This document shows positions 3,647-59,874 of a stretch of 64,000 nucleotides of DNA, piece by piece. A program made the position numbers and the translations under genes. The stretch is from a virus (Duplodnaviria; Caudoviricetes). The notes beneath the pieces are model-generated. The model did not search any database and had not been told where the DNA came from. It saw only the letters and a list, made by a program, of their open reading frames with translations. The stretch lies in IMG/VR virus record IMGVR_UViG_3300032116_022045; one strand, given 5' to 3'. The first letter of the stretch is position 1. Each line of letters opens with the position of its first letter.

Positions 3647-6633
3647 TATTCAATATCTGCCATTGGTAAAAAAGGTTTATTTTCTCTTTTAATATTTAAT
3701 GGTTTTTCAATATTATGTTTTTTACTTTTTTTATCTTTAGAATCCTTATCGTTAGTTTGTTTTGGTCTTTCATCATCGTCATCATCACCAAAGGTTTCAT
3801 TTAATTGTCTTTGAATATAATGTTTATCAAAACCATGCATATCTATTTTATTTTTTAAGAAATGATATACTTCTTCGATGTCATCTTTTGATGTTGCGAT
3901 ATGGTCTAATGCCCAACCATGACCATCTGATAAGACATTATCAACATTTTCAAAATCCATACCTTTCATTTCTGAAACTGCATTATAGATAGTTTTTAAA
4001 TTTTGCCAAAACATATAATTATTTGACATTTCATCTTTATTTGACATAATTTCTTCTAATTTTTGTTTAAAATTTTCCATATTTTCTTTAATACTTTTTT
4101 TACCCCATGATTTACCTTTACCTTTTGTTTTACATGCACTAGGATATGGTCTACATGCTGGATATTTAGCTCTTTTTTCACCTTCTTCTCTACCACAAGG
4201 TTTACATTTTAATCTACCAGTTTCTTTATTTTTTCTACATGTATTACAATCAACCCAGCCTTGTGAACCTTCACCACCTTTTCTAGAAAACCAACCATGA
4301 AGACCTTGTGATTTCTCTTTTGAGAAGTTAGTTTTTTTAGATTCATCTACTTTAATCTTATTTGTTTTGATATAATCATCAATCCATGCTTGTAATTCAT
4401 GTACATCTGGTGCGTATTCTTTACCCTTTTTTCTTGTAATCGAATCATGAGCTTTTTTAATCATTTCTCGACTCAACTTTTCTCTATCTATCTCTTTAGT
4501 TTTATTAATAGTTTTTTTACCTTCAGTAAATAATCTAGGCATTGTTAAGTATTTAATTATATTTTTATAATAAATATTAACATTACTACGCTTATCTTTA
4601 ATTAATTCACCGTTATCGTTTTTTGGTGTTAGATAACCATTAACATAACCAGTTTCAAAATTAAACTTTTTCATTTCAAATTTAACTAATTTAGATGACA
4701 AAACATCGTTTCTATAAGATTCACTTTTATCTTCAAACTTATCTTTTAAACTATTTATTGTTTCTAGCATATCTAAATTAAAATCAACATCATTATTAGC
4801 AAAATAAATTTCTAAAAGGTTAATCGCTTCAAAATGTTTAGCGATTTGAATTATTTTTTCTATTTCATCTAAGTCTTTAATGTCAACTTGTTTCATAATA
4901 TCATCTATGTTATCTTCATTAAAACCACCAATATGATGTATAAACATAATTGCATCATAGTTTTCATCATCATATCTATTTTCTAAACTTGCTTCAAGAC
5001 CATACAAAAAATCACGTCTAAAATCTTTAGCCATATCTGGATAATCAATGTAATTTAAAGCCATAGAAACTGTATAATAACCATCTGAATTTCCATCACC
5101 TTCAAAAGCAGCTCTTACTAAGCTTTCTTTCTGTTCATCTGTAAATTTATTACTATAAAAATTTTCAAAAGTTTCAGTATCACCATTTTCTAATGATGCT
5201 TCACAGATATTAAAATCAAGGTCGTTACCATAAATTTTATTAAAAAATTCATAAACATCATCATTTTCATTCATAAATTCACCAAGTCTTATTGGATAAT
5301 CTTTAGCGTCCATAAATTGAGAATCCTCAAAATGAAATTGATATTTTTCAGAAGGGTCTTGTTTATTTATTAATATGTATAAAGACCCTCTATTATTATA
5401 ACGGTCAAACATGTTATTATAACCAGTTGCTGCTGTACACCATTTTGTACCTTTACCATAATAACAAGAAGCTTCTTCTGTTTTTGGAACAATAATTGTC
5501 CAGTTAGTTAAATTATATTTATCAACGTCTTTTTTAATTTCTTTTTCTATATCTGTTTTTGATTTTAACTCTTCACTATCTGATTTTGATTCTAAATCAA
5601 AAATAAAATCTAATAAAGTTTTTATATTAAATTTATTAATATCTTTTTTATCAGTAGGTAATAGATTTTTAATCTTACTAGTATTAAAAAATTCTAAATC
5701 GTTTTTTATTTTATATAAATCTTCATCTTTAGCTTTTTTCAATAATTCAACATTATCTTTTCTGAATAACCATCTAGTATATTCACCTAATTTATTTTTA
5801 TCTTTATTATATGTTGGGTCTAAATCAATTATTTTATTAAATTTTTCTTTATCTGATTTTTCATCATCTTTATTAAATAAGTTTTTATAGAATTTATTAT
5901 AAGCTTCTTCAGAACTTATTTCATTTATTATGTTCATATTTTCTTCCATTATTTTTTTAATAAATTTTTTTTGCCTTAATTTAATTGTATCTAATGATTC
6001 TTTAATCTTTTTTCTACCTTGACAATGTGCTTTTTGGCTAAACCCTTTTGGGTTACTACAATCAATACTCTTTTTGTATTTCTCTGACCATTTCTCATTA
6101 ATTTGGTCATCAATATTTTCATCAGTTTTATTTCCCCAATTAGCAGCACCAACTTTACGACATTTTACGAGGGCACCTGAACCGTAGGCACTTGGCCAGA
6201 CAGAATATCTACTTTTTACTTTATAATAACAAGCATCTCTTTTTGTTTTTTTCTTTTTCTTTTTACCCTCTTGAATAATTTCAAATATAGCATATTCACC
6301 ATCTTCAAAATCAGTTTCAATAACTTCAACCATTAAATCACCAGAACCTTTAATTACCCTATGAAATGTGTTTTTAGGTATAAAAATTTCTTCATTAACA
6401 TTAAGTTTTTTTGGCAATTCATTATCAAATTGAATCATCCAATCATTGTTTTCTAAAACAATAACAACTCTATCTTTTTTATCTCTATGCCAAGATAATT
6501 CATTTTCATTAACGTCTTTTGAAAATGAACGTCTAATTATATTATTATTTATAGTTTCCTTATAAGGTTTCATATTATTTTTCATTTTTTTCTTGCCATT
6601 TATATGAGATTGAATCATCTTCGATAGGACCAC
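3646..6633 (-). CDS. Large modular protein: cupin-like N-terminal module, small basic Cys-rich modules, an ASCYYGxGTxWCT domain and a DGHGWALDHIATS module
   Basis: 995-aa ORF; modules are shared with ORFs 7049-8407 and 8440-9870; module borders fall at (I/L/V)xE motifs. Confidence 0.75.
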   Translation of the reverse strand: MVLSKMIQSHINGKKKMKNNMKPYKETINNNIIRRSFSKDVNENELSWHRDKKDRVVIVLENNDWMIQFDNELPKKLNVNEEIFIPKNTFHRVIKGSGDLMVEVIETDFEDGEYAIFEIIQEGKKKKKKTKRDACYYKVKSRYSVWPSAYGSGALVKCRKVGAANWGNKTDENIDDQINEKWSEKYKKSIDCSNPKGFSQKAHCQGRKKIKESLDTIKLRQKKFIKKIMEENMNIINEISSEEAYNKFYKNLFNKDDEKSDKEKFNKIIDLDPTYNKDKNKLGEYTRWLFRKDNVELLKKAKDEDLYKIKNDLEFFNTSKIKNLLPTDKKDINKFNIKTLLDFIFDLESKSDSEELKSKTDIEKEIKKDVDKYNLTNWTIIVPKTEEASCYYGKGTKWCTAATGYNNMFDRYNNRGSLYILINKQDPSEKYQFHFEDSQFMDAKDYPIRLGEFMNENDDVYEFFNKIYGNDLDFNICEASLENGDTETFENFYSNKFTDEQKESLVRAAFEGDGNSDGYYTVSMALNYIDYPDMAKDFRRDFLYGLEASLENRYDDENYDAIMFIHHIGGFNEDNIDDIMKQVDIKDLDEIEKIIQIAKHFEAINLLEIYFANNDVDFNLDMLETINSLKDKFEDKSESYRNDVLSSKLVKFEMKKFNFETGYVNGYLTPKNDNGELIKDKRSNVNIYYKNIIKYLTMPRLFTEGKKTINKTKEIDREKLSREMIKKAHDSITRKKGKEYAPDVHELQAWIDDYIKTNKIKVDESKKTNFSKEKSQGLHGWFSRKGGEGSQGWVDCNTCRKNKETGRLKCKPCGREEGEKRAKYPACRPYPSACKTKGKGKSWGKKSIKENMENFKQKLEEIMSNKDEMSNNYMFWQNLKTIYNAVSEMKGMDFENVDNVLSDGHGWALDHIATSKDDIEEVYHFLKNKIDMHGFDKHYIQRQLNETFGDDDDDERPKQTNDKDSKDKKSKKHNIEKPLNIKRENKPFLPMADIE

Positions 6634-7027
6634 CTTTGGCCCATGTTCTACAACTTCTAGCTGAATGACATTTAAAATGATGCATCCAACAATAACCTAA
6701 TCTACCATCTTCATCAGATACTGGACCTGGCATACAATCATCCATTCTTTTAGAGATATCAAAAGCAACACAATTACCACATCTAGATTCCATAGCAGCT
6801 TCAACACTAGTATCCCAATGGTCAGCTATATTTTCCCAAAAATCAGCTGGTTCATCAACATTTAACGGACCATATTTAATGTGTGGTTCATTTATTGCAG
6901 CATCTCTATTTTTAGTGTTTAATTCTAAATCTTGTGTTGCTTTTGGACAATCCATTTCTGGTTTACCTAAAACTTGTCTGTTTTTTCTTTCAATTAATAT
7001 TTTTTTGTTTTTTTCTATTCTTCCCAT
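6575..7027 (-). CDS. Cys/His-rich hypothetical protein (CGNC...YCWMHHFKCHSARSC), possibly metal-binding
   Basis: ORF track; Cys/His pattern. Confidence 0.7.
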   Translation of the reverse strand: MGRIEKNKKILIERKNRQVLGKPEMDCPKATQDLELNTKNRDAAINEPHIKYGPLNVDEPADFWENIADHWDTSVEAAMESRCGNCVAFDISKRMDDCMPGPVSDEDGRLGYCWMHHFKCHSARSCRTWAKGGPIEDDSISYKWQEKNEK

Positions 7028-11869: not shown

Positions 11870-12554
11870 AATTTATTAATTTTCTATTGTTTTTAATCGT
11901 TTAAAAATATCTCAATAATTTTTTTCATTGCATTTCGGTTGTTTTTATGTAATAAATTATTTTTATACTATTTTTGTCGTAAAATCATTCTTGCGAGCGA
12001 TTCACCAATTACCCCCCAATTGCTTTTGAAAAATTCTTCGCCTTCTGGTGAGTTGTTCCAAAACATAAACCCATCTGTCTTTTCAATATCTTTCATTTTA
12101 TTAACAGAATTTTCAACAGTAATTTCATCAGTTCGAAATTCCAAAAAAACAGCTTTACCAAACTGAATAACTCCGTTATTATCTTTATATGTATATTGAA
12201 CCATACCCATTGGCAACTCCGAAAAAAATAAGTTCTTAAAATAAATCTCTCTTGTTGTCATAATATTTTTTCATTGCATTTTCTTAAGTTCTTCTTTAAT
12301 TCTTCGAATTTCGGTAATTACATCATCACCAAGTTCAATTTTAGACATCAGAATTAAGTCCATAATTTGTGATTCGTAAAGTGCAATTAGCTCTTGTTGT
12401 GATTGTATTACTTTTTCGTTATTCATGATTTTTTATTTTTTTATATTTAAGAATATTAACAAATATACTATTAATAATCGAATTAAACAAAAAAATGTTT
12501 TAGTTGCGTGATATTTTTATCCTAAAATATTGTGGTAATTAAATATACATCAAT

Positions 12555-14487
12555 TAGTTATAAAGATGTATTGCGTATATTCTGTTGTTATAGGTAATAA
12601 AACAAAAATTACGAGTTTTTTATTTCTTCAAACCCATAGTAATGTAAGAACATCAGTGTATGTTCGTCATCATCTAGCATCCTTTCTGTTATTGTTATTA
12701 TTTTACCGTTATGTTCGTTTTTCAAATTACCAATAAACTTCTGCCCTACTTGTAAATAATTAGGTGTAATTTTTGTTTTACTACCTATAACAAATAATTG
12801 GCGTAATGCCTTTAGTTTTTCAATCAAATATTTTCTCATAATATCAACTTTTGTTTTTCAAATTAACTTTTCGTTTGGCACTACGCCAATTATCAACCGT
12901 TATACACAATACTACATTAGTGTTTAAATTATAGTTCCGTGTAAAACTTTAAAATTAATTTTGTGAAATAAAATCTTGACACAATAGATAATCTTGGTTA
13001 TACTCAGATAAGTTATATTTAATATTAATATTATTTTCACAAAATCTTATAAAATTATGAATTATAGGTGTTCCTAATAACTGATTATGTTTTTTTGTGT
13101 AAAAAACAATTATAGGATATAAAACACCCTCAACATCATCGTAAAATTTTTGATTATATTTATTTAACACCAAAAAACAATTTAATAAATTTTTCCCTAA
13201 CACAAGATTATTAGTCAGTTCCAGTTGTTTTTCTGGGGTTAAATTGTCATTAATGAAACCTCTAGTTTTCCACAATTCAATATGTGTGTAATTCATAATT
13301 TTATATTTTAAAGTTAATATTTGTTTTTCAATTAAAGTTTCTACTTAATAAACCGTACTGTGTATAACAAGGTGTATATGTAATTCTTTTTACAAAGATA
13401 CGAATAAATTTTCAGATTTCCAAATAAAAAACTACATATACACCCAACCGTTAGCGGCAATTTAATACCGTATTTTATCATTAACTATACTAACAATCCA
13501 AAAGAACCCAACCAAGCTGAAAGCTGTAAACAGGTAACACATAAACATATTCATTTCGCTTTCAAACATTAAAACAAATCCAACTAATTGAAGGATAAAA
13601 ACTGCCGCTAACATCGCATATACGGCAATAGCGGCTACTGTGCTAATTTTAAACTTTTTCATTATATTTTAGTTTTTGTTGTTAATTAAACTTCTGTGTT
13701 TCAAATCCGCTACTGCGTATATGCCCAACCGTTATGAATAATAAATTTTAAACCCATTCAATCGGTATCAACTTATCACATTTACTATCTTTCACTTCTT
13801 TACAATCATTGTAGTATTCTACGGTAGGAACTACTTTAACAGAACCATCTTCAAATGTGATAATCACTGCTTTGTCCCAATTAGGATGTTTTTCTTTTTT
13901 TAAGATTTTCATATATTTATGTTTAAAATTTACATACTTATAACAAATGATAAACAACATTAAAACGATTGTTTATCATCGGACGTTATATGAAATGTTA
14001 TTTTTGTTCTGAGTTAATTAAAATTAAATACCCAATAAAATAACCCATTTTATCAGAAGATATGACATCATCAATTTTATTTTCCAATTCATTATCTTTC
14101 ATGTAAAATGTTTCAGTGTCCTTGAAATAAAATACAGATAATGATACATTACCATTCATATCCAATAAACATATTTCAAATATTTTACATGAAAGATTTT
14201 CACCCACTTCTTCATTCCCAATTCGTCCATATTTTATTTCATAATCATAGATAATCTTACCTTCTGATATTCTATTATTAATCACACCAGATAAAACACC
14301 ATTAGTATCTTCTGATAATGATTTTGAGTAATTAGTTAATAATTTACCAATATCAAATTTGGTATCCAAGTTTTTAATTTTAAATTTATTCATAATTTAT
14401 ATTTTTAATAGGTAAAACAAAAATAACACATTCATATAACAGATGATAAACAACATTAAAACGATTGTTTATCATCGGACGTTATTC
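12555..14487 (+). mobile_element. Integron-type attC cassette array, part 1 (about 5 cassettes)
   Basis: attC-like hairpins at 12785-12905, 13362-13456, 13606-13737, 13938-13991 and 14434-14487, plus a half site at about 12555-12593; the ends of most cassettes are 10-bp reverse complements. Confidence 0.8.
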
Positions 14488-14508
14488 ATAACTTTCTATT
14501 TTTTATAT

Positions 14509-14940
14509 TTAAGAATATAATAATACACAATATGTTACGTTTAAGTATAATTTAATAATAAGTGGTTCTGTAGTCCCCCAATCCAAAACACCAAAATCAA
14601 CTTTATTGATTGTACCTTTAATTAACCATTCTTCAACTTTATCACCGATAGGAGATAATATAGAAAGATTAACTTCTATTGTTTGGTCATCTAATTTTCT
14701 TAATTCTCTTAGTCCCGTCATCAATGATTGACTCGTTGATGGTACAATTGGGTCGTACATTGAGAAAACCATTTCATCCCATTTATGTCCGCCATTTGTT
14801 ATAATAAAGGTTGGTCTAGTTGTACTTTTTACAACAAATTTTGGAATATTAAATGGTGGTTTAAATTCAACCATAAATCTACTTACAGATTTAGGTTCAA
14901 ATGGCACAAATACTTCTTGATTGGTCTCGTCTTTACTCAT
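14509..14940 (-). CDS. Tail tube (T4 gp19-like) related protein, short orphan copy
   Basis: FEPKSVSRF...WDEMVFSMYDPIVPSTSQ...VEEWLIKG...DFGVLDW, recalled as the gp19-like tube signature. Confidence 0.6.
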   Translation of the reverse strand: MSKDETNQEVFVPFEPKSVSRFMVEFKPPFNIPKFVVKSTTRPTFIITNGGHKWDEMVFSMYDPIVPSTSQSLMTGLRELRKLDDQTIEVNLSILSPIGDKVEEWLIKGTINKVDFGVLDWGTTEPLIIKLYLNVTYCVLLYS

Positions 14941-15200
14941 AACTTTCTATTGTTTTGTAACTATCAAAACATAAATGTACTGTATCTTCATTTATACTTA
15001 ATATCGGGTAACAATGATGTAAAATACCTGATTCACATATTGTTTTGTATTCAATATTTTCTATGTAACTTTCCTTTGATACACCAGACTTACTACGTTT
15101 TTGCCATTTATAAAAGAAGATTACATCTTGTTCTTCGAATAGTCGTATAATAAATTTCATTTCATCATTATATCTTCCTTCAAACCATTTTTCATTAATT

Positions 15201-15782
15201 TTAACTTTCATAAACTTCTATTTTTTCGTTGTTGTATGTTATTGTAATTAGTCGGGTTGGCACATTCCATTCATTATTCATTCGGTATTCAATATCCGAT
15301 GGTAATAAGATTTCACTATCATCAGTATCATTTAATTTTTCTCTACATAAATTCATTCTTTCCTTCAAACTCAACTCTCTTTCCTCAATCTTTAATCCCC
15401 ATTTTTTTGAGAACTCTGAATCGGTTTTGCATTTGTTGATGAACTCTTCTTGTGAATACGGTTTCCATCTACTTTCAATTTCAGGATTCTTCTTAATCCA
15501 ATAATTATCTACTTCATCGTTATGTTTTAGATAGTTCTTATACGCTTCGTCAATAGTCATATCGGCTAACAAAGATTTTATTTTTCTAGCGCACTCAGTT
15601 ACTCTACCATCTACATCAAGTACGGTTGAAGATTCTAACGACCAAAGAAAATCATGTACCGTGGCATATGTTATCTCTCTTTTAATTTGTTTTAACCCAT
15701 CATATAAATGCTCTGCTGGGTCGATATAACTAGATGTACCTAATATAGTAATTACTTCTTTAATTATTTCTTCTTTACTCAT
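15201..15782 (-). CDS. Paralog family member 1 (WGLKIEERELS...RLITITYNNEKIE domain)
   Basis: Shares its C-terminal domain with 15775-16173 and 16437-16808. Confidence 0.75.
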   Translation of the reverse strand: MSKEEIIKEVITILGTSSYIDPAEHLYDGLKQIKREITYATVHDFLWSLESSTVLDVDGRVTECARKIKSLLADMTIDEAYKNYLKHNDEVDNYWIKKNPEIESRWKPYSQEEFINKCKTDSEFSKKWGLKIEERELSLKERMNLCREKLNDTDDSEILLPSDIEYRMNNEWNVPTRLITITYNNEKIEVYES

Positions 15783-16173
15783 AAATTTCTATCGTTTCAT
15801 TATTGTATGTTATTGTGATTAGTCGGGTAGGGGTCGGCTCGTAATAATCATTTTCAAAATCAGGAAGATTATTTTCATTGTATTCCATACCAGTTTCAAA
15901 ATTATTCTTAAACCAAATCTTATATCTTTCTTCCGAACTCAACTCTCTTTCCTCAATCCGCAATCCCCATATTTGAGAGAACTCTGGGTCGGCTTTGCAC
16001 TTTGATAAAAAACCATTTTTATTGTATTGTCTTGCACCTATAGACTTCTCACCAGTTTTCATGTCCATCACTGGAACAGGTTCGAGAAATTTAGGATTGC
16101 TATCAAACATGGTTTGTTGAAGATACTTACGCCAAGACTCATCAATCATCTGATTCATTTTTTCGTTACTCAT
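15775..16173 (-). CDS. Paralog family member 2
   Basis: MSNEKMNQMIDE...WGLRIEERELS...RLITITYNNETIEIYE. Confidence 0.75.
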   Translation of the reverse strand: MSNEKMNQMIDESWRKYLQQTMFDSNPKFLEPVPVMDMKTGEKSIGARQYNKNGFLSKCKADPEFSQIWGLRIEERELSSEERYKIWFKNNFETGMEYNENNLPDFENDYYEPTPTRLITITYNNETIEIYE

Positions 16174-16436
16174 AACTTTCTATTTTTTGATTTTCCCATT
16201 CAGTACCACTATAACCGATTGTTTCCATTTTATCAGTATCTACAAAAACACCCCAACCCCATTCAGATTGATAAAAAACCTCATTATCTTTGAGTTTTTC
16301 GGTCATTAACCAATTTTCATCTAAATCTTCAATTAAACACGTACCATTTTTTGGTACATATTTTATTTCTCGTTTATTAGTTAAAATAAATTTAACTTCC
16401 TCCCCATAACCTTTTAACTTTATTGTATCTGGTAAG

Positions 16437-16808
16437 TTACTCATAACTTTCTATTTTTTCGTTGTTGTACGTTATTGTGATTAGTTTTGCTGGGATGTTA
16501 GATGCATCGAGAACTGATTTTTCTTCTATAATTAACTTATGGTTTCTATCATAAAAATCTCTCTTATTATCACTTTGACTAACCAGAATTTTTGTTCTTT
16601 CTTCTAAACTCAACTCTCGTTCCTCAATCTTTAATCCCCACTTTTCAGAGAACTCAGGGTCTGTTTTAGACCTATAAATGAATGTTCCTTTAGTTTCTTT
16701 TGCCATCCATAAAAGACCTGTACCTTCTAAATGTTTACCCATTTCATATGATTTTTCATAATTCTCATACGCCTCATCAATAATCTGATTCATTTTTTTG
16801 TTATTCAT
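16437..16808 (-). CDS. Paralog family member 3
   Basis: MNNKKMNQIIDE...WGLKIEERELS...KLITITYNNEKIESYE. Confidence 0.75.
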   Translation of the reverse strand: MNNKKMNQIIDEAYENYEKSYEMGKHLEGTGLLWMAKETKGTFIYRSKTDPEFSEKWGLKIEERELSLEERTKILVSQSDNKRDFYDRNHKLIIEEKSVLDASNIPAKLITITYNNEKIESYE

Positions 16809-18282
16809 ATGTAATTTTAGTTACTTGAAATACTTGTTCTAAACCATCGTCTTCACATATATATCCGTTGTACTCGCCTGCATCCCAAACGTTAAATTTA
16901 AAATATAACCCATCTGATTTTCTTTGTACAATGTAATCCCATGAAGGGCCATCTGAATATTCTGAAGTGTTTATCTTGGTTATGTGAGTGTAAGTGTCTC
17001 CATCAATCTCATAACTACTGCCTTGAAAGTAAATACCATCCCACAACTCTAGTTGTTGCTCGGAGTTCATTTCAATTAAAATTCTATCTTTTTTATTCAT
17101 CTTTTTTATTAAATAATTCTTTAAAATTAACTGTTTCTTCTAAAATAATAATATCAATATTCATTTCTTCTTTAGCTTTTTCAATCATGTTGTTTAATAT
17201 TCCTCTAGTCCAAAGGCTACACCCATAACTGTTCTTATGGCATTTATAAACAGAATTAGAATACCCTTTAAAATAATAGAAATCTTCATCGTCTTCAACA
17301 GATACGATTCCACTATTCATTCTCCATACATCTGAAGAAATGTAACCACCATACCAAGTGGCAAAAACTTTATATAAATCTTCGGATATTTTTAATACCA
17401 CCCATTTATCAGGACTATGCATAATTTATTTTTGTAAGGAAATTGAGACTTTGTACTTCAAACGAGAAGAGTTTATATCTGTTTCAATTAACCCAAACAC
17501 GATACTTAAATCTTCTGGATTAATCATTGTTGGGGTAACCATAAATTCTTCTCCTATGTTATCAAGAGAATTTTTAATATTTTCCACTATTGATATTGGT
17601 ATCAATGTTTCAATTTCCATTTCTTCAAAGGTTTCTGGGTTAATGTGTTTTGATTTGTAATTTTTCATATTTGTATAAATTTATTTTTGTTTTGAATATA
17701 TTTCATATGTTTTATTAACAGCATCTTGAACACTTTCCATCCAAGTTTTCAATATTGGCCTAAAATTGAAAATGGACATTTCTGCGTCCCAAATAACTTT
17801 GGGGATTTCGATTTTAATAATTTTTCGGTTTTTCATAATTATTTTATTAGTTTTTGCATAATTCAGTTATTTTATTTTCATTTTCCATAGTATTTAAGTT
17901 TTGTGTTTCAATTTAAAGTAAACGGAATAACCCATCTTTCACAATCTTGTGTCAATCTATTGATGTGTTTATAATTATTCATTTAGTTATAAAGATGTAT
18001 TGCGTATAGCCTGTTGTTATAAAACATTTTTCGATACACCAAGTTCCTTTGATTTTACCAAAAATTCATTTTCATCTTCCAAAGAAATAGTTGAAAATAA
18101 ATGATGTTCCACCAAATATAATGGTGCGTTTGATGTAACTAAATCATTTAATTTAGCTTTATCCCAGAATTTTTCAACTCTTTCTTCTTGTGCTTTTGTT
18201 AATTTTTCCATATAAAACGTTTTATAACAAGGTATATGTGAAATACCTCATAAGGTTTCTACTAATTTTTAAGTTTTGTGTT

Positions 18283-18690
18283 TCAATTTAAAGTAAACGG
18301 AATAACCCATCTTTCACAATCTTGTGGCAATCTATTGATGTGTTTATAATTATTAATATACCCCATCATATTAGCTGAACCAATAGCGTTGGCAGAATGA
18401 ACCATAACCCTTGTTACTGGAGACCCATCCATCCATTTTTCAACTAACCATTTTGTGCAGTCCATACCAGTTTTTTCGGTTATGTTATTGTAATCAATGG
18501 TGTAGTTATTAACCACATTATTATGCCACTCAATCATAGCAGAATCACCTAAATCATGGTCCAAAGATATTAATTCTATATTTTCAAGACCTATTTCAGT
18601 TATTTTTGAAACAAATTCATCGTAGTTTCTAACCACAATCCAATCAGAACCCAATGGAGTTCTAACATCATCTAAATATATTTTTGTCAT
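18283..18690 (-). CDS. Receiver-like domain protein (cyclic-phosphate-processing receiver family)
   Basis: IYLDDVRTP...ISLDHDLG...VMVHSANAIG motif pattern. Confidence 0.65.
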   Translation of the reverse strand: MTKIYLDDVRTPLGSDWIVVRNYDEFVSKITEIGLENIELISLDHDLGDSAMIEWHNNVVNNYTIDYNNITEKTGMDCTKWLVEKWMDGSPVTRVMVHSANAIGSANMMGYINNYKHINRLPQDCERWVIPFTLN

Positions 18691-18983
18691 TTTGTTTTTA
18701 ATGTTTCAATTTCTACTAATAATTCTTTAACATCAAATTTATCCATTTTTTGAAAGTTTTTATATTTTGTTTTAATTGTTGAATTAAAAACAGAACCATT
18801 ACTTTCAGCCAATTCAAAACTATTGTAATCAATAGAATCAACATTATGATATTTGTATTGACCACCATTTTTAAAAATTATTGTTAAATCAAAATTATTT
18901 CTGTCGTACACTGATGCACAAATGTTTGATGAATCATAAATAGCTTTTATAATTCCCTTTTGTTCTTCTTTTTTTAATACCAT
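18687..18983 (-). CDS. KTSC domain protein
   Basis: DSSNICASVYD...LTIIFKNGGQYKYHNV...AESNGSVFN pattern. Confidence 0.7.
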   Translation of the reverse strand: MVLKKEEQKGIIKAIYDSSNICASVYDRNNFDLTIIFKNGGQYKYHNVDSIDYNSFELAESNGSVFNSTIKTKYKNFQKMDKFDVKELLVEIETLKTK

Positions 18984-20908
18984 TTTTATTTATTTATTAC
19001 AAATATACTAATAATATTTTATTTACACAAAAAAATATTTAAATAATAGTTGCGTAATATTTTTATCATAAAACCGTGATATAATTACCTATATATCATT
19101 TAGTTATAAAGATGTATTGCGTATAGCCTGTTGTTATAAACAATAAAAAACCTTAAAGTGGTGGTTCTAAATTATCTTTTATCTTATCATAAGAATCTTT
19201 AATCGCATCTGAAAGTATTTGTTCAATAGGTTTTTTACTATTTATAACAACGGATATATGAAATAAAAAATTAATAGATTCTACAAACTTTCTAATTTCT
19301 TCCTCCGATTTACATTCTCGTTGAACAACACAAAATTCACCTCTTACCACTTTACAAGTTTGGGTTTCTATGTTGTAATAAAGTATTGGTAATCTACAAG
19401 AGTTTCCACATATTTCAGTATCTTCTTCACCTAAAACCCAAACTTGTTTTCCAGAGAATACATCAACTATCTCTTTGAATCCTAAATCTGTTAAATTTTG
19501 TGTTGTTATCATCGTTCTAATTATTAATTTTTTACATTCATATATCCGCAACCGTTATAAAACATAAAATTATAATAACATCAGTAAACAAATTAATGTA
19601 CATACCGTTATTATCATAAGTGCGATTTTTTCAGTCTTATCTATTTTCATAATTTTACGATTTTATAACAAGGTATATGTGAAATACCTCATAAGGTTTC
19701 TACTAATTATTTAAGTTTCGCGGTTAGGTACTTCACATATACCCAACCGTTAGTGGCAATTTTGACGATGTATCTCATCACCGATAGCTTGTAATCTTTT
19801 GACATCTTCTGCATCCCATAAGTAAATTCGGCAGTTAGTTTCTTTTCCATCTTTAATAATTGGTGCAAATCTATCTTTACCCATATCACCGATAGAAAAA
19901 CTGCCACTAACATCGGTTTTGCAAAAAAGCCGTTTTAGTGCTAATTTTAATCTTTTCATTTCTATTGAACTTTTGTTGTTAATTGAACATTTGTTTTTCA
20001 AAATCGGCTTCTTCGCAAAGCCGTAAACGTTAGTGGCAATTTTGCTCACCACGCTTATAAACCATCTCTTTGTTTTCGTCAAAATGTAAGTCATATTCTT
20101 TACAAAAAGACCTAACCATTTTTCTAAATTCGTGATATTCCCAAGTTGTTAAGTCGTGCTTATCAAACAACAACCTCATTTTATACAATAATCCATTAGG
20201 TCTTCTTGTAAATTCATCTTGATAAAAACTGCCACTAACAGCACCTAAATCGCTATTGGCGGTTTCTTCTGTATTCAAATTTTCGTGTTCCATATTATGT
20301 TTATTTAAAATTGATAATTTAGTGTTCCAAATCGCCAACAGCGTTTAGCTGCGGCACGTTATAAGTAATTTTTAGTTACTCCTTATCATATTATCTTCTT
20401 CAAGAAAAAACATTTCCAATGCCGTGTCATATCCTTTACCCTCTTCCACTATCATAATATACTTACCTTCGCCATAAGCTACAGTAGCATTTTTATCAAC
20501 AATGAATTTAATCTTCTTACCTTCATACTTATTATGATAATGTAAGAAAAAACTACTTATAACATCAGATATACCCAATTCGGGGTTATGTGTTTCATTT
20601 GAGTTTTGTTCTTTATCAACCATTTTATTTATTATTTCTTCTTCTCGTTTATTTTACGTTTTTATTTTTTTTATTTTTGGTATGTCGTGAAATATGGTTT
20701 CTTTTCGTATATTATCGGTTATTATCAATGAATTATAATGTAAACTTATATGAACATTATTATATGTAACTGACCTACATTCAAAATCAACTGTTATAGT
20801 TTCATATGACTTGTTAAAAATAGTTTTATCTTCCATATAACAAAAATACTACTATTTATTATAAAAAACAATTGTTAAGATAAAAAAAAATATTGTATAT
20901 TTGTAACT

Positions 20909-36087: not shown

Positions 36088-36160
36088 AAGGTAGTAGTTC
36101 AGTTGGTAGAATGCTAGTTTTGGGAACTAGTGGTCGCAAGTTCGAGCCTTGCTTACCTTA
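36088..36160 (+). tRNA. trnP: tRNA-Pro(TGG)
   Basis: Full cloverleaf; anticodon arm CTAGT-TTTGGGA-ACTAG; no encoded CCA. Confidence 0.92.
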
Positions 36161-36281
36161 CTTTTGAATTAAAAAATGGATTCAGCAAATTTTAAAAAAT
36201 TACATTGGACGTAAAAAAAACCATTTTGTTTCAAAAAAAAAAAAATAACTTTTTAATAAAGATAACATATTTATTTGTAAA

Positions 36282-36365
36282 ATGAAAAACTATTCTAACA
36301 TATTTGACTTCGCATTTTTTGCTGGTGAGGAAGATTTAAACCTCATAATGGTCAAGTTTTGTTAA
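36282..36365 (+). CDS. Attenuator leader peptide MKNYSNIFDFAFFAGEEDLNLIMVKFC
   Basis: 27-codon ORF overlapping alternative hairpins upstream of the tRNA Phe/Asp/Glu/Ala cluster. Confidence 0.75.
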   Translation: MKNYSNIFDFAFFAGEEDLNLIMVKFC

Positions 36366-36385
36366 TTTTTATTAAATAATCATAT

Positions 36386-36425
36386 AAAAAACCTTGACCA
36401 TTAAAAAGTCAAGGTTTTTTTATTT
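36386..36425 (+). terminator. Attenuator terminator (3:4 hairpin)
   Basis: AAAAAACCTTGAC-CATTAAAAA-GTCAAGGTTTTTT followed by TATTT, immediately before tRNA-Phe. Confidence 0.85.
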
Positions 36426-36498
36426 GGTATGATAGCTCCAATGGTAGAGCGCAAGTTTGAAGAACTTGGCGTTGGTGGTTCGAATCCACCTCATACCA
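36426..36498 (+). tRNA. trnF: tRNA-Phe(GAA)
   Basis: Cloverleaf; CAAGT-TTGAAGA-ACTTG. Confidence 0.93.
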
Positions 36499-36503
36499 CA
36501 AAA

Positions 36504-36575
36504 GGACTCATGGTCTAAAGGTTATGATACTTGACTGTCTATCAAGTGATTGGGGTTCGATTCCCCATGGGTTCG
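36504..36575 (+). tRNA. trnD: tRNA-Asp(GTC)
   Basis: Cloverleaf; CTTGA-CTGTCTA-TCAAG. Confidence 0.92.
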
Positions 36576-36593
36576 CAAAAAAAAAAATAATAT

Positions 36594-36666
36594 CGCACAT
36601 TCGTCTAGTGGACTAGGACATCTCCCTTTCACGGAGAAGACACGGTTTCGAATACCGTATGTGTGA
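36594..36666 (+). tRNA. trnE: tRNA-Glu(TTC)
   Basis: Cloverleaf; TCTCC-CTTTCAC-GGAGA. Confidence 0.92.
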
Positions 36667-36671
36667 CAAAT

Positions 36672-43333: not shown

Positions 43334-43879
43334 ACATTGTAAAGATACAAGGAATATTTGACACCACCAAATAAAATGTAAAAAAAATAACAGATATTCT
43401 ATTATTTTTTTTAGGTTATTTGGATTAAAAATTAATTAGAATTTAGATAGTTCCCAAATTACTAATCCAATGATTCCGATAACACCGAATGATATTGACA
43501 ATAAGACGATGTTTTTTTCAAGTTTGTTTTCCATTGTTGTTATATTAAAGTGTGTGATTGATTTATTTTTTGAAATAGGCAAAATAACTCATAATGATAC
43601 AAGCAATTAATTCTATGACCCCTATTGACAGGATTACAGGTTCATTAAACCCAAATAGGTATAAATGATTGATTAATACGATTAGTAAATAAACACCTAT
43701 AATTGGTGCTACAATACCGACAGAAGTTAAAATACTTTTAATGTTTTTCATGATGTTGTTTTTTGTTTGACTATACAAAGATAAAACAAATATTTGATAT
43801 ATCCAAATAAAATAAAAAAAACCCCATCTTTTTACAGACAGGGTTTCTCGTTCACAACTTAACCAAAAAAAAAATTAGC

Positions 43880-43967
43880 AGTCAGGACAGGATTCGAACC
43901 TATTAGGAGTTATTGACTATTACCTCCACCGCTCACTCGGTGCGTCTACCAATTCCGCCACCTGACC
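43880..43967 (-). ncRNA. tRNA-framed RNA T1 (88 nt; Leu-like D arm, non-canonical anticodon arm)
   Basis: GGTCAGG-TG-GCGGAATTGGTAGACGC...AGGTTCGAATCCTGT-CCTGACT. Confidence 0.8.
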
Positions 43968-45245: not shown

Positions 45246-45249
45246 TCGT

Positions 45250-45323
45250 AGTCAGGACAGGATTCGAACCTGTAAATGAATCAGACTAATGCAGACTCTG
45301 CGATACCATTACGCCACCTGACC
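45250..45323 (-). ncRNA. tRNA-framed RNA T4 (74 nt)
   Basis: Same acceptor and T arm; irregular anticodon arm. Confidence 0.8.
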
Positions 45324-55369: not shown

Positions 55370-55996
55370 TTATTTCCAAACAAAACCTGAAAATTCTTTT
55401 TTGCCAAAATGTTTTTTAAAACATATTGAAATAAATTCAACGTGTGATGTCCCCATATCAATATTTTCTATTACCTTAACTCTCTTATTATTTTCATAAT
55501 AACCTATTCTACCACTCATATAATTACGACACTTAGATTGAGTTATCCACTCCTGTTTAACAAAAAATTGAGCAAATGCCCCATTTTTTTTATCGTTTTT
55601 GTAGGTTGTAATATCTGTAATAAAACTATCCCAAAATAACCAAATACCATCTCTTTTACCATTATTAAAAGAGCCTTTAACCGCTATCCCATCAGGGTTT
55701 AATAATGATGTTACACCACGTGTATATTCAAAAAAATCACCACATAAACGACCATTAACCCAATTAGTTTTTTGTCTTAATTGATTATGATGAGTGTATT
55801 CTATCCATTCACCATGTTTTTTACCATTTTCGTAAGTACCCTCTAAAATGGTTGAAATTGTTTTATAGAAATGGTAATTTTCATTAATAATATGGGGAAC
55901 ATATCTCCATTCACCATGTTTTTTACCATTTAAAAAATCACCAAAACCAATAACATTAATTGTTTCTCCATGTGTTTTAAGTTTTTCAATAACCAT
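55370..55996 (-). CDS. MORN-repeat (YwqK-like) protein, divergent
   Basis: GKKHGEW repeats. Confidence 0.7.
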   Translation of the reverse strand: MVIEKLKTHGETINVIGFGDFLNGKKHGEWRYVPHIINENYHFYKTISTILEGTYENGKKHGEWIEYTHHNQLRQKTNWVNGRLCGDFFEYTRGVTSLLNPDGIAVKGSFNNGKRDGIWLFWDSFITDITTYKNDKKNGAFAQFFVKQEWITQSKCRNYMSGRIGYYENNKRVKVIENIDMGTSHVEFISICFKKHFGKKEFSGFVWK

Positions 55997-56120
55997 AATT
56001 AATTTTGTTAATTGTTAAACGATGTCACAAAGATAAAACAAATAATTTATATCTCCAAATAAATTTATAAAAAAAACCCTATCCGTTGCAGATAAGGTTT
56101 TTTTCCTCTTTCGTTTTAAT

Positions 56121-57528
56121 TTATTCTTTTATTCTTAACTTATCCACATCAATACCTAACTTACTTGCAATATCACTTAAAGTTAATTCAATTAACTTTG
56201 GTTCATCAGGATTATAATCAACTTGCTTTCCCATGTCATAATAACCTTTAGACCATAATTGACCATTATCATAATATTCTTCCCATGAACCATGTTTTTT
56301 ACCATTAACGTAGTTACCTTTATAAGATAATTGACCATTAGAATAATAGGATTCACATGAACCATGTCTGTAACCATTTACATAGTTTCCTTTAAAACAT
56401 AATTTACCATTAGACCAATAGTCTTCACAATAACCATGTCTTTGACCATTAACATAGTTCCCTTTAAAATATAATTGACTATTATCATGATAGCCTTCCC
56501 AATAACCATGTCGTTCACCTTTTTCATTATAAAGGTTAATTAAATTTTCTTTTCTGATTTCTGAAGTGTTCATTTCTTTTTTTTTTGTTTATGATGCAAA
56601 GATATAACAAATAATTTAATCTACCAAATTATTTTTTATTCCTTTATTCTTAACTTATCCACATCAATACCTAACTTACTCGCTATTTCATTTAAACTTA
56701 ATTCAATTACCTTTGGTTCATCAGGATTATAATCAACTTGCTTACCCATGTCATAATAAGCTTTATACCATAATTGACCATCAGAAGAATAGGATTCCCA
56801 ATAACCATGTTCATTACCATCTACATAGTTACCTTTATAAAATAATTTACCATTAGACCAATAGTCTTCCCAATAACCATGTCGTTTATCATTAACATAG
56901 TTTCCTTTACACAATAATTGACCATTATCAAAATAGGATTCCCAATAACCATGTAGTTTACCATCAACATAGTTTCCTTTATACCTTAATTGACCATTAG
57001 ACCAATATACTTCCCATAAACCATGTCTTTCACCTTTTTCGTTATAAAGGTTAATTAAATTTTCTTTTCTGATTTCTGAAGTGTTCATTTTTCTTTTTGT
57101 TTATGATACAAAGATAAAACAAAGTTTTGATTCTACCAAATTATTTTTTATTCTTTTATTCTTAACTTATCCACATCAACACCTAACTTACTTGCAATAT
57201 CACTTAAAGTTAATTCAATTAACTTTGGTTCATCAGGATTATAATCAACTTGCTTACCCATGTCATAATAACCTTTATAACATAATTGACCATTATACCA
57301 ATAGTCTTCCCAATAACCATGTTCTTTACCATTAACATAGTTTACTTTATACCATAATTTACCATTAGAATAATATCTTTCCCAATAACCATGTCTTTGA
57401 CCATTAACAAAGTTTCCTTTATAACATAATTGACCATTAGACCAATAGTCTTCCCAATAACCATGTCGTTCACCTTTTTCGTTATAAAGGTTAATTAAAT
57501 TTTCTTTTCTGATTTCTGATGTATTCAT
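56121..57528 (-). CDS. Three MORN-repeat paralogs (56121-56573, 56636-57088, 57148-57528; 4, 4 and 3 repeats)
   Basis: Shared MNTSEIRKENLINLYNEKG N-cap, 24-aa repeats and conserved C-cap. Confidence 0.88.
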
Positions 57529-58196
57529 TTTTCTTTTTGTTTATGATGCAAAGATATAATAAAGTTTTGATATATTCAAAATATTATTTTAATTTTGCCA
57601 ACCATGCTGAATCATTAGTTGTTGCTATTGAAAATAATTCATGTATTTGCTCTTGGGTCATATCTTTTAATCTAAGTTCACCATAACTTTTTAGATATGA
57701 ATCTAAGTTATCATCTTTCCATTCAAGAAGATAATGTCTAATTCTACTTGGTAGTGTTTGGAAATATGTTTGTTGATTTTCCATTTTAATTAATTTGGTT
57801 TATTTCAAGACCTTGTGTTTGATTAATTAAATTTAAATTATCAAAATCTGTTTCGGTTAGATTATATCCATCGAATTCATTTGATGCTTTAATTGCTTTT
57901 TGTTTTTCATCAAAGGCACCTATCAGGTTATATGAATTTTTTGAGTGGTGTTCATCTGTGCTGAATAGGATGTAAATATATTTGTTCATTTTGGTTTAAT
58001 TAAAATGATGTACACATTTGTGTATGTTTTCTGTTGTAGATTTTCTTTGATGGTTTTGTTTTTGTAACCATTTTTCTACGAATAATTTGAGTAATATGTC
58101 TATCGGTCAAACCTTGTTTCCAATCATGTTTCGTTTTCATAATGCAAAGATAAAACAAATATTTGATACCACCAAATAAATTTTAATTTTTTTTGT

Positions 58197-58337
58197 TGTC
58201 AGGACAGGATTCGAACCTGTATGAATTTCTTACATTACCAGCCTATAACGAGTAATTATTCTGCCGTTTCCAAGAGTATTTCTCTATAGTTAAGAACTCT
58301 TTTAACATCAGCGTCTGCTCAATTCCGCCACCTGACT
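58197..58337 (-). ncRNA. tRNA-framed RNA T5 (141 nt)
   Basis: Same frame with a long insert in place of the anticodon/variable arms. Confidence 0.8.
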
Positions 58338-58341
58338 AGGT

Positions 58342-58476
58342 TTAGTTCTTAAATATCGAAATTAGCAAAGAGATTATCTCTAGCCATCCAATTACGCCAA
58401 AGAATATGTAAGGCAATCTGAAATCATCCCATGCTGGTTTCTTGAATAAAAAAATAACTTTTAGAGCTTCTGCCAT
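58342..58476 (-). CDS. 44-aa membrane peptide (MAEALKVIFLFKKPAW...) between tRNA-framed RNAs
   Basis: Manual translation; hydrophobic C-terminal half. Confidence 0.45.
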   Translation of the reverse strand: MAEALKVIFLFKKPAWDDFRLPYIFFGVIGWLEIISLLISIFKN

Positions 58477-58490
58477 AATTTGTTTTTAGT

Positions 58491-58561
58491 AGTCAGGACA
58501 GGATTCGAACCTGTGCATTCATTGATATCATCTCATTGCTCTACCACTGAGCTACCTGACT
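58491..58561 (-). ncRNA. tRNA-framed RNA T6 (71 nt; defective anticodon stem)
   Basis: AGTCAGG-TA-GCTCAGTGGTAGAGC...ACAGGTTCGAATCCTGT-CCTGACT. Confidence 0.8.
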
Positions 58562-58565
58562 GATT

Positions 58566-58655
58566 GAGGATGAGAAGTCCTCCGTGTTGTAGAAGATTAC
58601 ACATCTATTCTTCTCTTTGCATTCCAGTTTCATTCCTTTCTCAAGGGAACAACAC
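58566..58655 (-). ncRNA. Companion structured RNA K1 (kissing-loop candidate)
   Basis: GTGTTG/CAACAC; TTCC-CTTGAGAAA-GGAA; GAGGA-CTTCTCA-TCCTC. Confidence 0.65.
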
Positions 58656-58659
58656 AAGT

Positions 58660-58786
58660 AGTCAGGACAGGATTCGAACCTGTATAAAAGACAAGCAGTT
58701 AGCCCTCACGATTGTAAGAGGGTTAGGGATTATGTCTATTCCCACATTTAACATACCACTGCGTATACCAATTCCGCCACCTGACT
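58660..58786 (-). ncRNA. tRNA-framed RNA T7 (127 nt)
   Basis: Same frame; the insert has two hairpins. Confidence 0.8.
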
Positions 58787-58790
58787 ATTT

Positions 58791-58872
58791 GAGGATGAGA
58801 AGTCCTCTGTGTTGTAGGGTTTCCTCCATTTGCCCTATATGGTATTAAATTCCTTTCTCAAGGGAACAACAC
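58791..58872 (-). ncRNA. Companion structured RNA K2
   Basis: Same ends as K1, different middle. Confidence 0.65.
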
Positions 58873-58906
58873 ATTTCTCAACCATCCACCTGATGAATGA
58901 TTGATA

Positions 58907-59296
58907 TTACTTTTTATCTAAGTCAAAATAATACTCATCTTCTTCTTGCCTATACCACGCACCCGTACACGCATCAACAATCAAACTCGGTAAGCCAAAA
59001 AAGTTTACATAAGGCACAAAACACATCCCGATATTGCCAATCAAATACCCTGGACGAATCTGTCTTTGCGTCTTAATTTGAGCATTCTCATACCCTTCCG
59101 CCTTGACAATGATAGTGTTACGCTTCTTTACAGGAACTTCAGCAGTACAACTTCCCTCTCCTACCTTGTTCCCATTCACATAAACTTTAGCATGGTCAGG
59201 TTTTACATTGATAGTTACTTCCTGCTTCATGCTTGAAGTAATTGTGGCACAGCTTGTTAATAAAGCTAATGCAATAATAGCAAAAATACTTTTCAT
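58907..59296 (-). CDS. PEGA-domain lipoprotein
   Basis: Lipobox LLTSC; VKPDHAKVYVNG and VKAEGY. Confidence 0.75.
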   Translation of the reverse strand: MKSIFAIIALALLTSCATITSSMKQEVTINVKPDHAKVYVNGNKVGEGSCTAEVPVKKRNTIIVKAEGYENAQIKTQRQIRPGYLIGNIGMCFVPYVNFFGLPSLIVDACTGAWYRQEEDEYYFDLDKK

Positions 59297-59603
59297 TTTT
59301 TGTTTTAATTAAAGTGTTAATACTGATTAGCATCGGGTTTTTAAAACCTCAATTTCTTTTTGAATTCTTGTAACTTCAGAATCCGTGAGTTTTACTCTAC
59401 TATCTGTACTTTTACCAGAATCATCTTTAATAGATACTCTTTTAAATCCAGATTGTAACTGATTTTCTAAACGCTCGATTACTCTTTTGCGTCTTGCCTG
59501 TGCAGGCTTTGTCATTGAATGATTTACTCCATTATGTTTTCTCATAACTTTATAGTAATAAAAATTGTTTCTACACTTCTAGGTAGTAGAATTCACCTAT
59601 AGC

Positions 59604-59722
59604 AGTCAGAACAGGATTCGAACCTGTAGTGTAGGGAGTGGAGACCTTCCAACTTTATTATTATAACCTCCACATTCTGTTTTTTTGTTGCCCCATAGCG
59701 TCTACCATTCCGCCACCTGACT
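59604..59722 (-). ncRNA. tRNA-framed RNA T8 (119 nt)
   Basis: Same frame with one G:U variant. Confidence 0.8.
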
Positions 59723-59725
59723 ATT

Positions 59726-59874
59726 TTGTTCCTTATTCTCTTACCACTTTATATCGGAACAAACCTGCTTATCTATCAAAGTGTACTCCAAATACTGACA
59801 CCTGCTTTAGTGGGTGTACCATATACGAATATGACTCCTCTCTGAACAATACGATTTTCTCAAGGGTACAGGTT
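59726..59874 (-). ncRNA. Companion structured RNA K3 (divergent, enlarged)
   Basis: AACCTG/CAGGTT; TACC-CTTGAGAAA...GGTA; directly follows a promoter. Confidence 0.5.

Follow-up and report, generated by a model that had tools for sequence, protein, structure and literature searches.

Integron biology rests on two assumptions: cassettes are promoterless and read from the platform, and recombination sites lie outside genes. In the attP of the CTX phage, a single-stranded DNA hairpin mimics a two-arm core site for an Xer-type enzyme, and the whole phage integrates at dif. The idea of a folded single-strand site acted on by an Xer-type enzyme may return in the system described here, in which, unlike in CTX, gene-sized modules appear to be shuffled within phage genomes.

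Several further systems come close in part. Phages have been reported to carry CALINs of 2-3 sites, detected by means of the classical attC model (Qi et al., 2023, PMC9892861), and one phage CALIN described in the literature is MW202573, a genome of 35 kb. In class 1 integrons, ORF-11/ORF-18 of attI1 place a start and a short frame inside a recombination site, spanning the crossover; an incoming cassette may supply their stop codon through its core, and fusions to cassette proteins are known (PMC8876359). In T4-type phages, PeSL elements comprise a strong early promoter and a terminator stem-loop and are recombined by homology; they have been suggested to bear expression signals and to underlie modular shuffling and mini-circle formation (PMC2839356, PMC4122927).

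The locus analyzed here belongs to a giant lake phage (Duplodnaviria; Caudoviricetes; IMGVR_UViG_3300032116_022045), of which a stretch of 64,000 nucleotides, termed the window, was available. Between 12.55 and 20.7 kb, its minus strand carries three co-oriented integron-like cassette arrays of 5, 1 and 5 units (arrays 1, 2 and 3, respectively). The stretch probably represents an integron-like cassette system borne by the phage, in three rows that lack a recombinase; its hairpins would carry starts and leaders and its modules would be reassorted. Along the coding strand, each unit consists of an outer box ATT-N5-TAAC, a GGTT bulge, a stem of variable length (12-25 bp), the loop, the return arm, a single T, an inner box GTTA-N5-AGT and the gene body, after which the next outer box follows. 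Its features are listed below:

20372..20623, minus strand: cassette ORF of 83 aa; start in the loop of the decayed first hairpin, leader through the inner core at 20552-20563
20236..20361, minus strand: long attC-like hairpin with ATG 20293 in the loop (DNA fold -18.9 kcal/mol, z -3.3; plus strand only -13.6)
20030..20293, minus strand: cassette ORF of 87 aa; in-loop start, stop on the outer-core TAA
19908..20032, minus strand: long hairpin with ATG 19959 in the loop
19750..19959, minus strand: cassette ORF of 69 aa; in-loop start, stop on the outer-core TAA
19666..19752, minus strand: mid-size hairpin of 87 nt, loop without a start codon
19570..19650, minus strand: small hydrophobic ORF of 26 aa; start 3' of the inner core
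19245..19557, minus strand: giant hairpin whose arms surround most of the ORF at 19153-19512
19153..19512, minus strand: cassette ORF of 119 aa; start inside the giant hairpin, inner core crossed at 19248
19096..19140, minus strand: attI-like end of array 1, one of three copies that are 89-100% identical
18225..18277, minus strand: 3' half of a mid-size hairpin plus inner core, with which array 2, of one cassette only, begins in truncated form (93% identical to 19661-19718, as repeat D14)
18017..18211, minus strand: cassette ORF of 64 aa; start 3' of the inner core, stop on the outer-core TAA
17979..18023, minus strand: attI-like end of array 2 (end repeat)
14509..17836, minus strand: block of ordinary overlapping phage genes without hairpins, between arrays 2 and 3
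14437..14484, minus strand: short hairpin of 48 nt, joined to a GTTA..TAAC gene junction and marking the far end of array 3
13998..14393, minus strand: cassette ORF of 131 aa; start 3' of the inner core
13941..13988, minus strand: short hairpin of 48 nt
13748..13912, minus strand: cassette ORF of 54 aa; start ambiguous because an in-frame upstream ATG (13960) lies inside the hairpin
13609..13734, minus strand: long hairpin with ATG 13662 in the loop
13462..13662, minus strand: membrane-like cassette ORF of 66 aa; in-loop start, inner core read in the other frame (G-TTA)
13365..13453, minus strand: mid-size hairpin of 89 nt
12955..13296, minus strand: cassette ORF of 113 aa; start 3' of the inner core
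12788..12902, minus strand: long hairpin with ATG 12839 in the loop (-18.4 kcal/mol, z -5.0)
12609..12839, minus strand: cassette ORF of 76 aa, with about 26 residues at its N-terminus encoded jointly by loop, 3' arm and an extended inner box of 28 nt; the region includes inverted repeat I3
12550..12594, minus strand: attI-like end of array 3 (end repeat)

The exact 9-mer TAACGGTTG occurs in five copies, on the minus strand only and confined to 12.9-19.8 kb, and was not found in ClpB-like-gene relatives. None of 10 cassette proteins matched a Pfam family. An energy scan over all TAAC..GTTA segments was dropped as too noisy, since long AT-rich segments fold regardless.

Six of the 11 cassette ORFs in the window start within a hairpin loop (ATGs at 12839, 13662, 19959, 20293 and 19512, and at 20623 in the decayed first hairpin) and then continue across the 3' arm and inner core (GTTA-N5-AGT), which together encode the leaders. 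At the other end, the outer-core TAA serves as the stop codon of three ORFs (those at 20030, 19750 and 18017). In the proteins of the 12609 and 20372 cassettes, conserved residues begin well upstream of any later methionine, and the in-loop starts are real for at least these two cassettes. At one related locus (L209) the leader is retained despite the loss of the 5' hairpin arm, and homologues of the 12609 protein that lie outside cassettes are leaderless. Stem-loops are present, and no promoter consensus was identified in the hairpin loops by a search that did not include a host-appropriate scan. The initial annotation had described minus-strand cassette ORFs that begin in a hairpin loop, read through one arm to yield the leaders that it quoted and, in some cases, end on the TAA of the next core box; every item lies where it was placed, and the observation is confirmed and general. 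The range that it gave, 12609-20623, holds for the cassettes but not for the ordinary overlapping genes at 14509-17836.

The generality is seen in a survey of 238 cassettes from about 95 IMG/VR phage contigs, whose elements were gathered by a motif- and stem-requiring detector. A start codon lies in the loop of 60 of 106 long hairpins, against 2 of 99 mid-size and 2 of 29 short ones. Among these loci, the commonest hairpin type is the short one of 48 nt at 14437..14484. ORFs start in or before the hairpin in 73 of the 238 cassettes; the inner core is likewise crossed by 73/238 ORFs and the outer core by none (0/238). Covariation is seen at 20 of 24 stem pairs of the long hairpins (n=77), in which 94% of cells are paired versus 63% in shuffles, a figure that is partly circular because a stem was a requirement of the detector. 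TAAC and GTTA never vary among these long hairpins (77/77), which also have a GGTT/T spacer and a covarying L stem. A MITE or insertion sequence, with conserved terminal inverted repeats that a transposase recognizes, was considered and rejected because the stems covary: arm sequences differ between copies with pairing kept, and N5 differs for each body.

The boxes themselves are complementary across the genes. An inner box and the next outer box form on average 5.8 Watson-Crick and 1.1 G.T pairs out of 8, against 2.9 and 1.5 for random pairs, whereas the two boxes that flank one hairpin pair no better than random ones. Every body has its own N5 sequence, and the inner-box N5 pairs with the outer-box N5 at the far end of the same body, 140-1000 nt away; in the window, for example, the flanks of ORF 20030 are complementary (GTTA-N5-AGT at 20239 and ATT-N5-TAAC at 20032). 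The arrays share one orientation, and as many as 16 hairpins are packed into 8 kb. Classical attC sites have extrahelical bases that set strand choice; what was observed here is a conserved G.T in each helix (A.C on the other strand) and a spacer asymmetry of 4 versus 1 nt.

Each array in the window ends, downstream of its ORFs, in a conserved attI-like sequence. The tail of the array 1 end resembles the sequence found in relatives between the last cassette and a recombinase gene. In 17 related loci, a gene for an Xer-like recombinase of 268 aa (in L093, at 6189-6995) directly follows the last cassette, always after the last unit and always on the cassette strand, and the junction TAAC|TAnnATATAT, conserved in 14 of the 17, resembles the three end repeats of the window. 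It follows from this position and strand that the ORFs face the attI-like end, opposite to the arrangement in a classical integron, and the claim that the ORFs run opposite to the usual cassette orientation is thereby borne out relative to the platform. In the window itself, no tyrosine recombinase was detected among ORFs of at least 150 aa or by tblastn. The recombinases of the relatives (268-270 aa) score 151 bits against TIGR02249, in two stretches and under the cut-off of 265; their best family, also under its cut-off, is the XerA type, their closest solved relative is XerA (4a8e), and they align to VchIntIA (2a3v) over residues 21-180 only.

Integrons and CALINs are thus matched in several respects: sites that are defined by structure, have invariant AAC/GTT cores and hold an unpaired spacer between two helices; co-oriented arrays; box complementarity that spans each cassette's gene; and a conserved attI-like end adjoining a tyrosine recombinase gene, here in relatives. 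By architecture, the sites are attC-like (imperfect hairpin, inverse-core and core boxes, R and L helices, unpaired spacer). Unlike in integrons, however, the recombinase is a 268-aa Xer-like enzyme under the integron-integrase cut-off, not an IntI with the integron-specific extra helix; the cassettes are not promoterless units transcribed away from attI with the ORF between a core and its own downstream attC, but point to attI, many starting inside the hairpin; both cores are homology breakpoints; and the hosts are lytic giant phages. The arrays qualify as CALINs (two or more clustered attC sites that lack a neighboring integrase) only on the premise that these sites count as attC-like. With ORF-11/ORF-18 they share a start codon and reading frame inside a recombination site, across the crossover point; those frames, however, belong to a single attI site and act mainly by translational coupling, whereas the long phage hairpins carry their own start and a leader fused in frame to the cassette protein.

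Comparison of loci reveals homology breaks at both outer and inner cores. The window hairpin 12902->12788, which provides the leader of the 12839 start, is 96% identical to a hairpin in L184; identity ends at TAAC and GTTA, and the flanking DNA and bodies are unrelated. The unit 19557->19130 has a 93% identical counterpart in L087; at each side the match ends precisely at TAAC, beyond which the DNA is unrelated. Between L174 and L184, identity switches at GAT-GTTA and the 3' arms are unrelated. One leader family is found on at least four unrelated bodies among IMG/VR loci and, in the protein database, also on a 20372-type body; one apparent fusion, P0008, was left out of account. Conversely, in 19 of 21 homologues of the 20372 protein the body retains 39-44 of 45 identical residues (87-98%) and the leader only 3-6 of 21-25 (14-29%). 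The bodies of 12609 and 20372 have no usable relatives in IMG/VR, and a metagenome scan placed the 12609 body at six loci. Clean swaps at the DNA level form a small sample (4 same-leader and 3 same-body pairs), and a strict megablast for very recent events returned only four blocks. Since homology breaks at both cores, hairpin-with-leader modules and bodies have been reassorted, giving several N-termini per body and several bodies per leader. The reading that a cassette always comprises hairpin plus body, exchanged at the outer core only, was dropped in view of the inner-core junctions. The outer core is also a junction, and the sole type seen at the attI-like end on the recombinase side, from which it follows that many cassettes move with their leader attached; as hairpins are co-inherited with the downstream body in 43 unique elements and with the upstream body in 6, leader and body usually stay together. 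The proposal that a crossover at G/TT joins a leader to a new body is supported by the switch of identity exactly at GTTA, with the enzymatic step inferred, and the search for one leader on different bodies in related genomes, suggested along with it, gave a positive result.

A more far-reaching reading is offered tentatively. The hairpins would be dual-purpose, acting as single-strand recombination sites and as translation-start and leader modules, and the Xer-like enzyme may act on folded single strands and exchange DNA at either hairpin foot, leaders and bodies being shuffled independently. The probable account given above has further elements. Because the inner-box N5 pairs with the outer-box N5 across the body, a full two-helix site forms only in a looped-out or circularized unit. 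The cassette genes being inverted relative to the classical integron, the platform could presumably not drive them; instead, the loops of long hairpins supply a start codon followed by 12-25 codons of leader. Translation would then pass the 3' arm and the inner box, which would impose motifs such as L-x-I-S-D-V-x-x-S, and stop at or before the outer-core TAA.

The shuffling might alternatively be driven by general homologous recombination between repeated hairpins, with no site-specific cleavage of the cores. Its context marks the phage as T4-like, the hairpin types are few and highly conserved, and many swaps share the last 15-20 nt of the 3' arm, as do the leaders of L187/L188. PeSL provide a precedent (PMC2839356), being likewise repeated stem-loop modules, interspersed with small accessory genes where the genomes of large lytic phages are variable. 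In contrast to PeSL, however, the phage system has covarying stems, invariant cores, boxes that pair across genes and a linked dedicated recombinase. Junctions lacking flanking homology, as in L174/L184 and window/L184, where nothing is shared beside the junction except the 4-7 nt core, argue against homology alone. The tight linkage of a dedicated recombinase and an attI-like site to the arrays also speaks against it, and N5 complementarity across bodies has no role in homologous recombination. We therefore consider this account unlikely.

Two other readings are given still less credence. According to one, which seems highly improbable, the hairpins were selected chiefly as RNA structures of the sense transcript (processing, stability or control of initiation), with the overlap with coding sequence a reflection of that role and DNA exchange a side effect. 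Where stems are mismatched, a coding-strand G nearly always faces a T (189 of 244 at one box position), the stem has a conserved G.T, folding of the coding strand is more favorable than that of the opposite one by about 5 kcal/mol and open loops hold the start codons. The same strand bias, however, suits a single-stranded DNA site on the coding strand, and the distant box pairing, attI-like ends, linked recombinase and homology blocks ending at cores indicate DNA. The other reading, to which we assign an equally slight probability, attributes leader differences to fast drift of an unconstrained leader and shared leaders to a common template at cassette making, with no swapping of existing genes. 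The leaders are indeed low-complexity, polar and dispensable, as leaderless homologues exist, and near-identical attC sites beside unrelated genes are the norm in Vibrio arrays. Against it, the bodies of L187/L188 are 99.5% identical with both adjoining hairpins different, identity in the 20372 protein falls from 44/45 to 3/25 at a single point, and leader DNA 85-96% identical sits on unrelated bodies. The interpretation of the initial annotation, that exchange at the core joins loop-encoded leaders to new bodies, is supported.

If true, the dual-purpose hairpins would give lytic phages a natural means of exchanging the front ends of the proteins that their accessory genes encode, and would be a concrete, testable case of site-directed shuffling of protein N-termini. 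This widespread phage system reverses both assumptions of integron biology: the genes face the platform, and the start codon and leader lie inside the recombination hairpin, the invariant core providing the stop codon and the leader-body join itself being an exchange point. A recurrent N-terminal motif of small phage proteins would be explained as the imprint of a DNA site, and the system bears on the use of folded DNA by an Xer-type enzyme without the integron-specific helix. Among deposited phage records, neither the 9-kb region nor the 87-nt hairpin gave a match, and one 48-nt hairpin matched two uncultured huge phages only.

Within 12.2-20.8 kb of the window every gene lies on the minus strand, and the cassette units share one plan along this strand. 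Each opens with an outer box (ATT-N5-TAAC), followed by GGTT or a variant, unpaired, and then by a stem and its loop; the return arm leads through a single T into an inner box (GTTA-N5-AGT), and the gene body extends from there to the next outer box. The stems comprise 12-25 bp and differ in sequence in each copy. Nine full hairpins and one half hairpin are present in the window, and the exact 9-mer TAACGGTTG occurs there five times, always on the minus strand and within the cassette stretch. The units form three arrays, each ending in one copy of a 45-nt sequence, referred to here as the attI-like end:

about 20690-19096, minus strand, array 1
18277-17979, minus strand, array 2, consisting of one cassette
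14484-12550, minus strand, array 3

The region between arrays 2 and 3 (14509-17836) holds ordinary overlapping genes without hairpins. Three paralogous genes in it (15201-15782, 15775-16173 and 16437-16808, minus strand) have an internal block of 88 nt and the last 67 nt at the 3' end in common and join their neighbors at overlapping stop/start junctions with a small GTTA..TAAC palindrome. Array 3 is connected by its far end (14484) to a junction of the same kind. Array 2 is flanked on both sides by a 98-nt direct repeat (17888-17985 and 18263-18360, 95% identical), a duplicate of the 3' end of gene 18283-18690, suggesting that an ectopic insertion or copying event took place recently.

The hairpin family extends well beyond the window. 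A 16-nt pattern drawn from three window hairpins was found in at least 119 IMG/VR stretches, and a complementary return arm, mostly ending in TT-GTTA, lies within 400 nt in 96 of 129 matches. A generic detector returned 352 hairpins on 96 locus-strands, with the same orientation within arrays, up to 16 hairpins in 8 kb and lengths that cluster in three classes near 48, 87 and 125 nt. Among 77 long hairpins, four core bases are invariant on each side and 20 of 24 stem pairs show compensatory changes; paired cells reach 94%, versus 63% in shuffles and about 40% with slid partners, a fraction that is partly built in because the detector demanded a stem, which does not apply to array density and co-orientation.

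The initial annotation proposed that cassette ORFs start in the hairpin loop and stop in the next core box, so that recombination could exchange N-termini; both the observation and this main inference stand. The ATGs at 12839, 13662, 19959 and 20293 each occupy the loop of a long hairpin (115-126 nt), and two more lie within a 313-nt hairpin (19512) and in the decayed first hairpin (20623). The leader peptides it quoted are the translated 3' arm and inner box, and ORFs 20030, 19750 and 18017 do stop on the outer-core TAA. Scored over 238 cassettes, the first ATG of the main ORF falls in the loop for more than half of the long hairpins (60 of 106) but rarely for the mid-size (2 of 99) or short ones (2 of 29), in which its median distance past the inner box is 37-50 nt. 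The inner core is crossed by 73 of the 238 ORFs and the outer core by none; 44 ORFs terminate on the outer-core TAA itself, and 153 end no more than 40 nt short of it. For 54 of 63 in-loop starts, GTT of the core forms a codon of the reading frame; the constraints on the DNA then dictate peptide motifs, for example L-[NHG]-I-S-D-V-x-x-S.

In ORF 12609 (12609..12839, minus strand) a conserved domain begins at about residue 27 and the next Met after the start is residue 54; ORF 20372 (20372..20623, minus strand) has near-invariant residues from 16-25 onward and no further Met before residue 57. A start beyond the core would thus truncate the conserved part, and these features support in-loop starts as the real ones for both ORFs. 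A homologue in locus L209 retains the same leader, with the 5' arm and both cores gone. A minority of leaders, at 13462-13662 and in the related loci L084 and L135, read the inner core in the other frame and have the hydrophobic character of a signal peptide or lipoprotein leader; cassettes may therefore be sorted by the core's frame into those with secreted and those with cytoplasmic products.

The predicted reassortment of leaders, including the occurrence of one leader on different bodies in relatives, was borne out by hairpin swaps and by switches of leader and body identity at the inner GTTA. The window hairpin 12902->12788 and a hairpin of the related locus L184 are 96% identical from TAAC to GTTA, and the flanking DNA is unrelated on both sides; homologues of the 12609 body that have no leader at all occur in non-cassette contexts (loci L210 and L211, database proteins P0012-P0014). 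The body of ORF 20372 is identical at 39-44 of 45 positions in 19 of 21 database homologues, versus only 3-6 of 21-25 matching positions in the leaders, and most of these homologues bear a leader family that is found on at least four unrelated bodies in IMG/VR loci. In anchored comparisons identity switches exactly at the inner GTTA in both directions: loci L174 and L184 share only GAT left of the junction. Loci L187 and L188 share a body with 99.5% identity and differ in both adjoining hairpins. The outer TAAC marks the start of the homology block in 42-72 of 117 cases, bounds the unit 19557->19130 on both sides in its match to a unit of locus L087 (93% identical), and the outer core abuts the attI-like junction. 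The outer core is a junction too, and the inner core is a second exchange point that has been used repeatedly. Hairpins are co-inherited with the downstream body in 43 unique elements versus 6 with the upstream body, most of the latter being two-hairpin blocks, so a leader and its own body usually move together.

Cassettes at L089:1722-2060 and L095:2718-3100 have the hairpin, inner box, 5' untranslated region with start codon, and last ~30 nt with outer box in common (92-100% identity), with unrelated ORF interiors between them; the frame of the cassette is conserved and its contents have been replaced. Three cassette segments common to L081 and L107 differ in order, which indicates cassette shuffling.

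Across the gene body, the eight bases that follow an inner GTTA can pair with the eight that precede the next outer TAAC. This pairing averages 5.8 Watson-Crick and 1.1 G.T pairs of 8 and reaches at least 7 of 8 in 64% of bodies, and the two boxes of the same hairpin pair only at random level (3.1 + 1.5; 11%). All window bodies obey it, with up to 28 nt paired around ORF 12609. The logic is that of the integron cassette, in which the site is complete only after the unit has been looped out or circularized. In 189 of 244 bodies one box position holds a G.T pair, and the stem has another, conserved G.T; the coding strand consequently gains about 5 kcal/mol in folding energy over its complement.

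Four of five large relatives encode a tyrosine recombinase of 268-270 aa, whose top models are XerA-type and integron-integrase, with a score below both cut-offs. Its closest solved relative is XerA (4a8e), aligned over the full length; VchIntIA aligned only to residue 180, and the enzyme thus seems to be without the integron-specific insertion. By tblastn across all loci, the recombinase or its remnants appeared in 17 further places, where it always shares the strand of the cassettes and immediately follows the last unit. At 14 of these 17 loci TAnnATATAT.. comes next after the last outer core, and the other three combine a more distant enzyme with a different conserved junction. The tails of the three end repeats in the window resemble the TAnnATATAT-type junction, and from this likeness and the recombinase position it follows that the ORFs point toward the attI-like end and the recombinase, in contrast to the polarity of classical integrons. 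The reversed orientation noted initially is thereby upheld. In the 64-kb window, no recombinase gene was found. In loci L126, L184 and L123 the more distant recombinase (41-47% identity) is accompanied by a different conserved sequence past the last outer core, which suggests that each enzyme type is matched to its own attI-like type. Otherwise complete giant phage genomes can carry a truncated or split recombinase gene beside an array (L141:9036-9353; L203/L204); these are decaying platforms, comparable to the recombinase-less arrays of the window.

The comparisons establish the anatomy and polarity of the arrays, the confinement of ORFs within the units and the pattern of reassortment; we infer that the Xer-like enzyme would use folded single strands as its substrate, at one foot of the hairpin or the other. 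Part of the pattern could also have arisen by homologous recombination in the manner of PeSL (PMC2839356) or by templated cassette formation, and part could reflect a mainly RNA-level role of the hairpins. A start codon within a recombination site has its nearest precedent in ORF-11/ORF-18 of attI1, a frame that extends over the crossover and can take its stop from the cassette core (PMC8876359). Phage CALINs have been described as sets of 2-3 classical attC sites (PMC9892861), and a full-text literature search found no paper on the present phage cassette system.

With 27% G+C and genes for ThyX, an 830-aa ClpB-like ATPase, an RNase H-like protein, an HNH endonuclease and seven tRNAs, the window looks like part of a large lytic phage. 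Deposited phage records contained nothing close to the window region; the ClpB-like protein has several hundred IMG/VR relatives, and some of the 80 loci retained are contigs of 200-370 kb. The tRNA genes lie at 36088-36667 (plus strand) and at 43878-43967, 45248-45323 and 58489-58561 (minus strand), four of them clustered (Pro, Phe, Asp, Glu), and one odd call has a two-base anticodon. At 55370-63000 (minus strand) there is a run of small paralogous genes with MORN-like repeats, in which the repeated DNA is highly similar.
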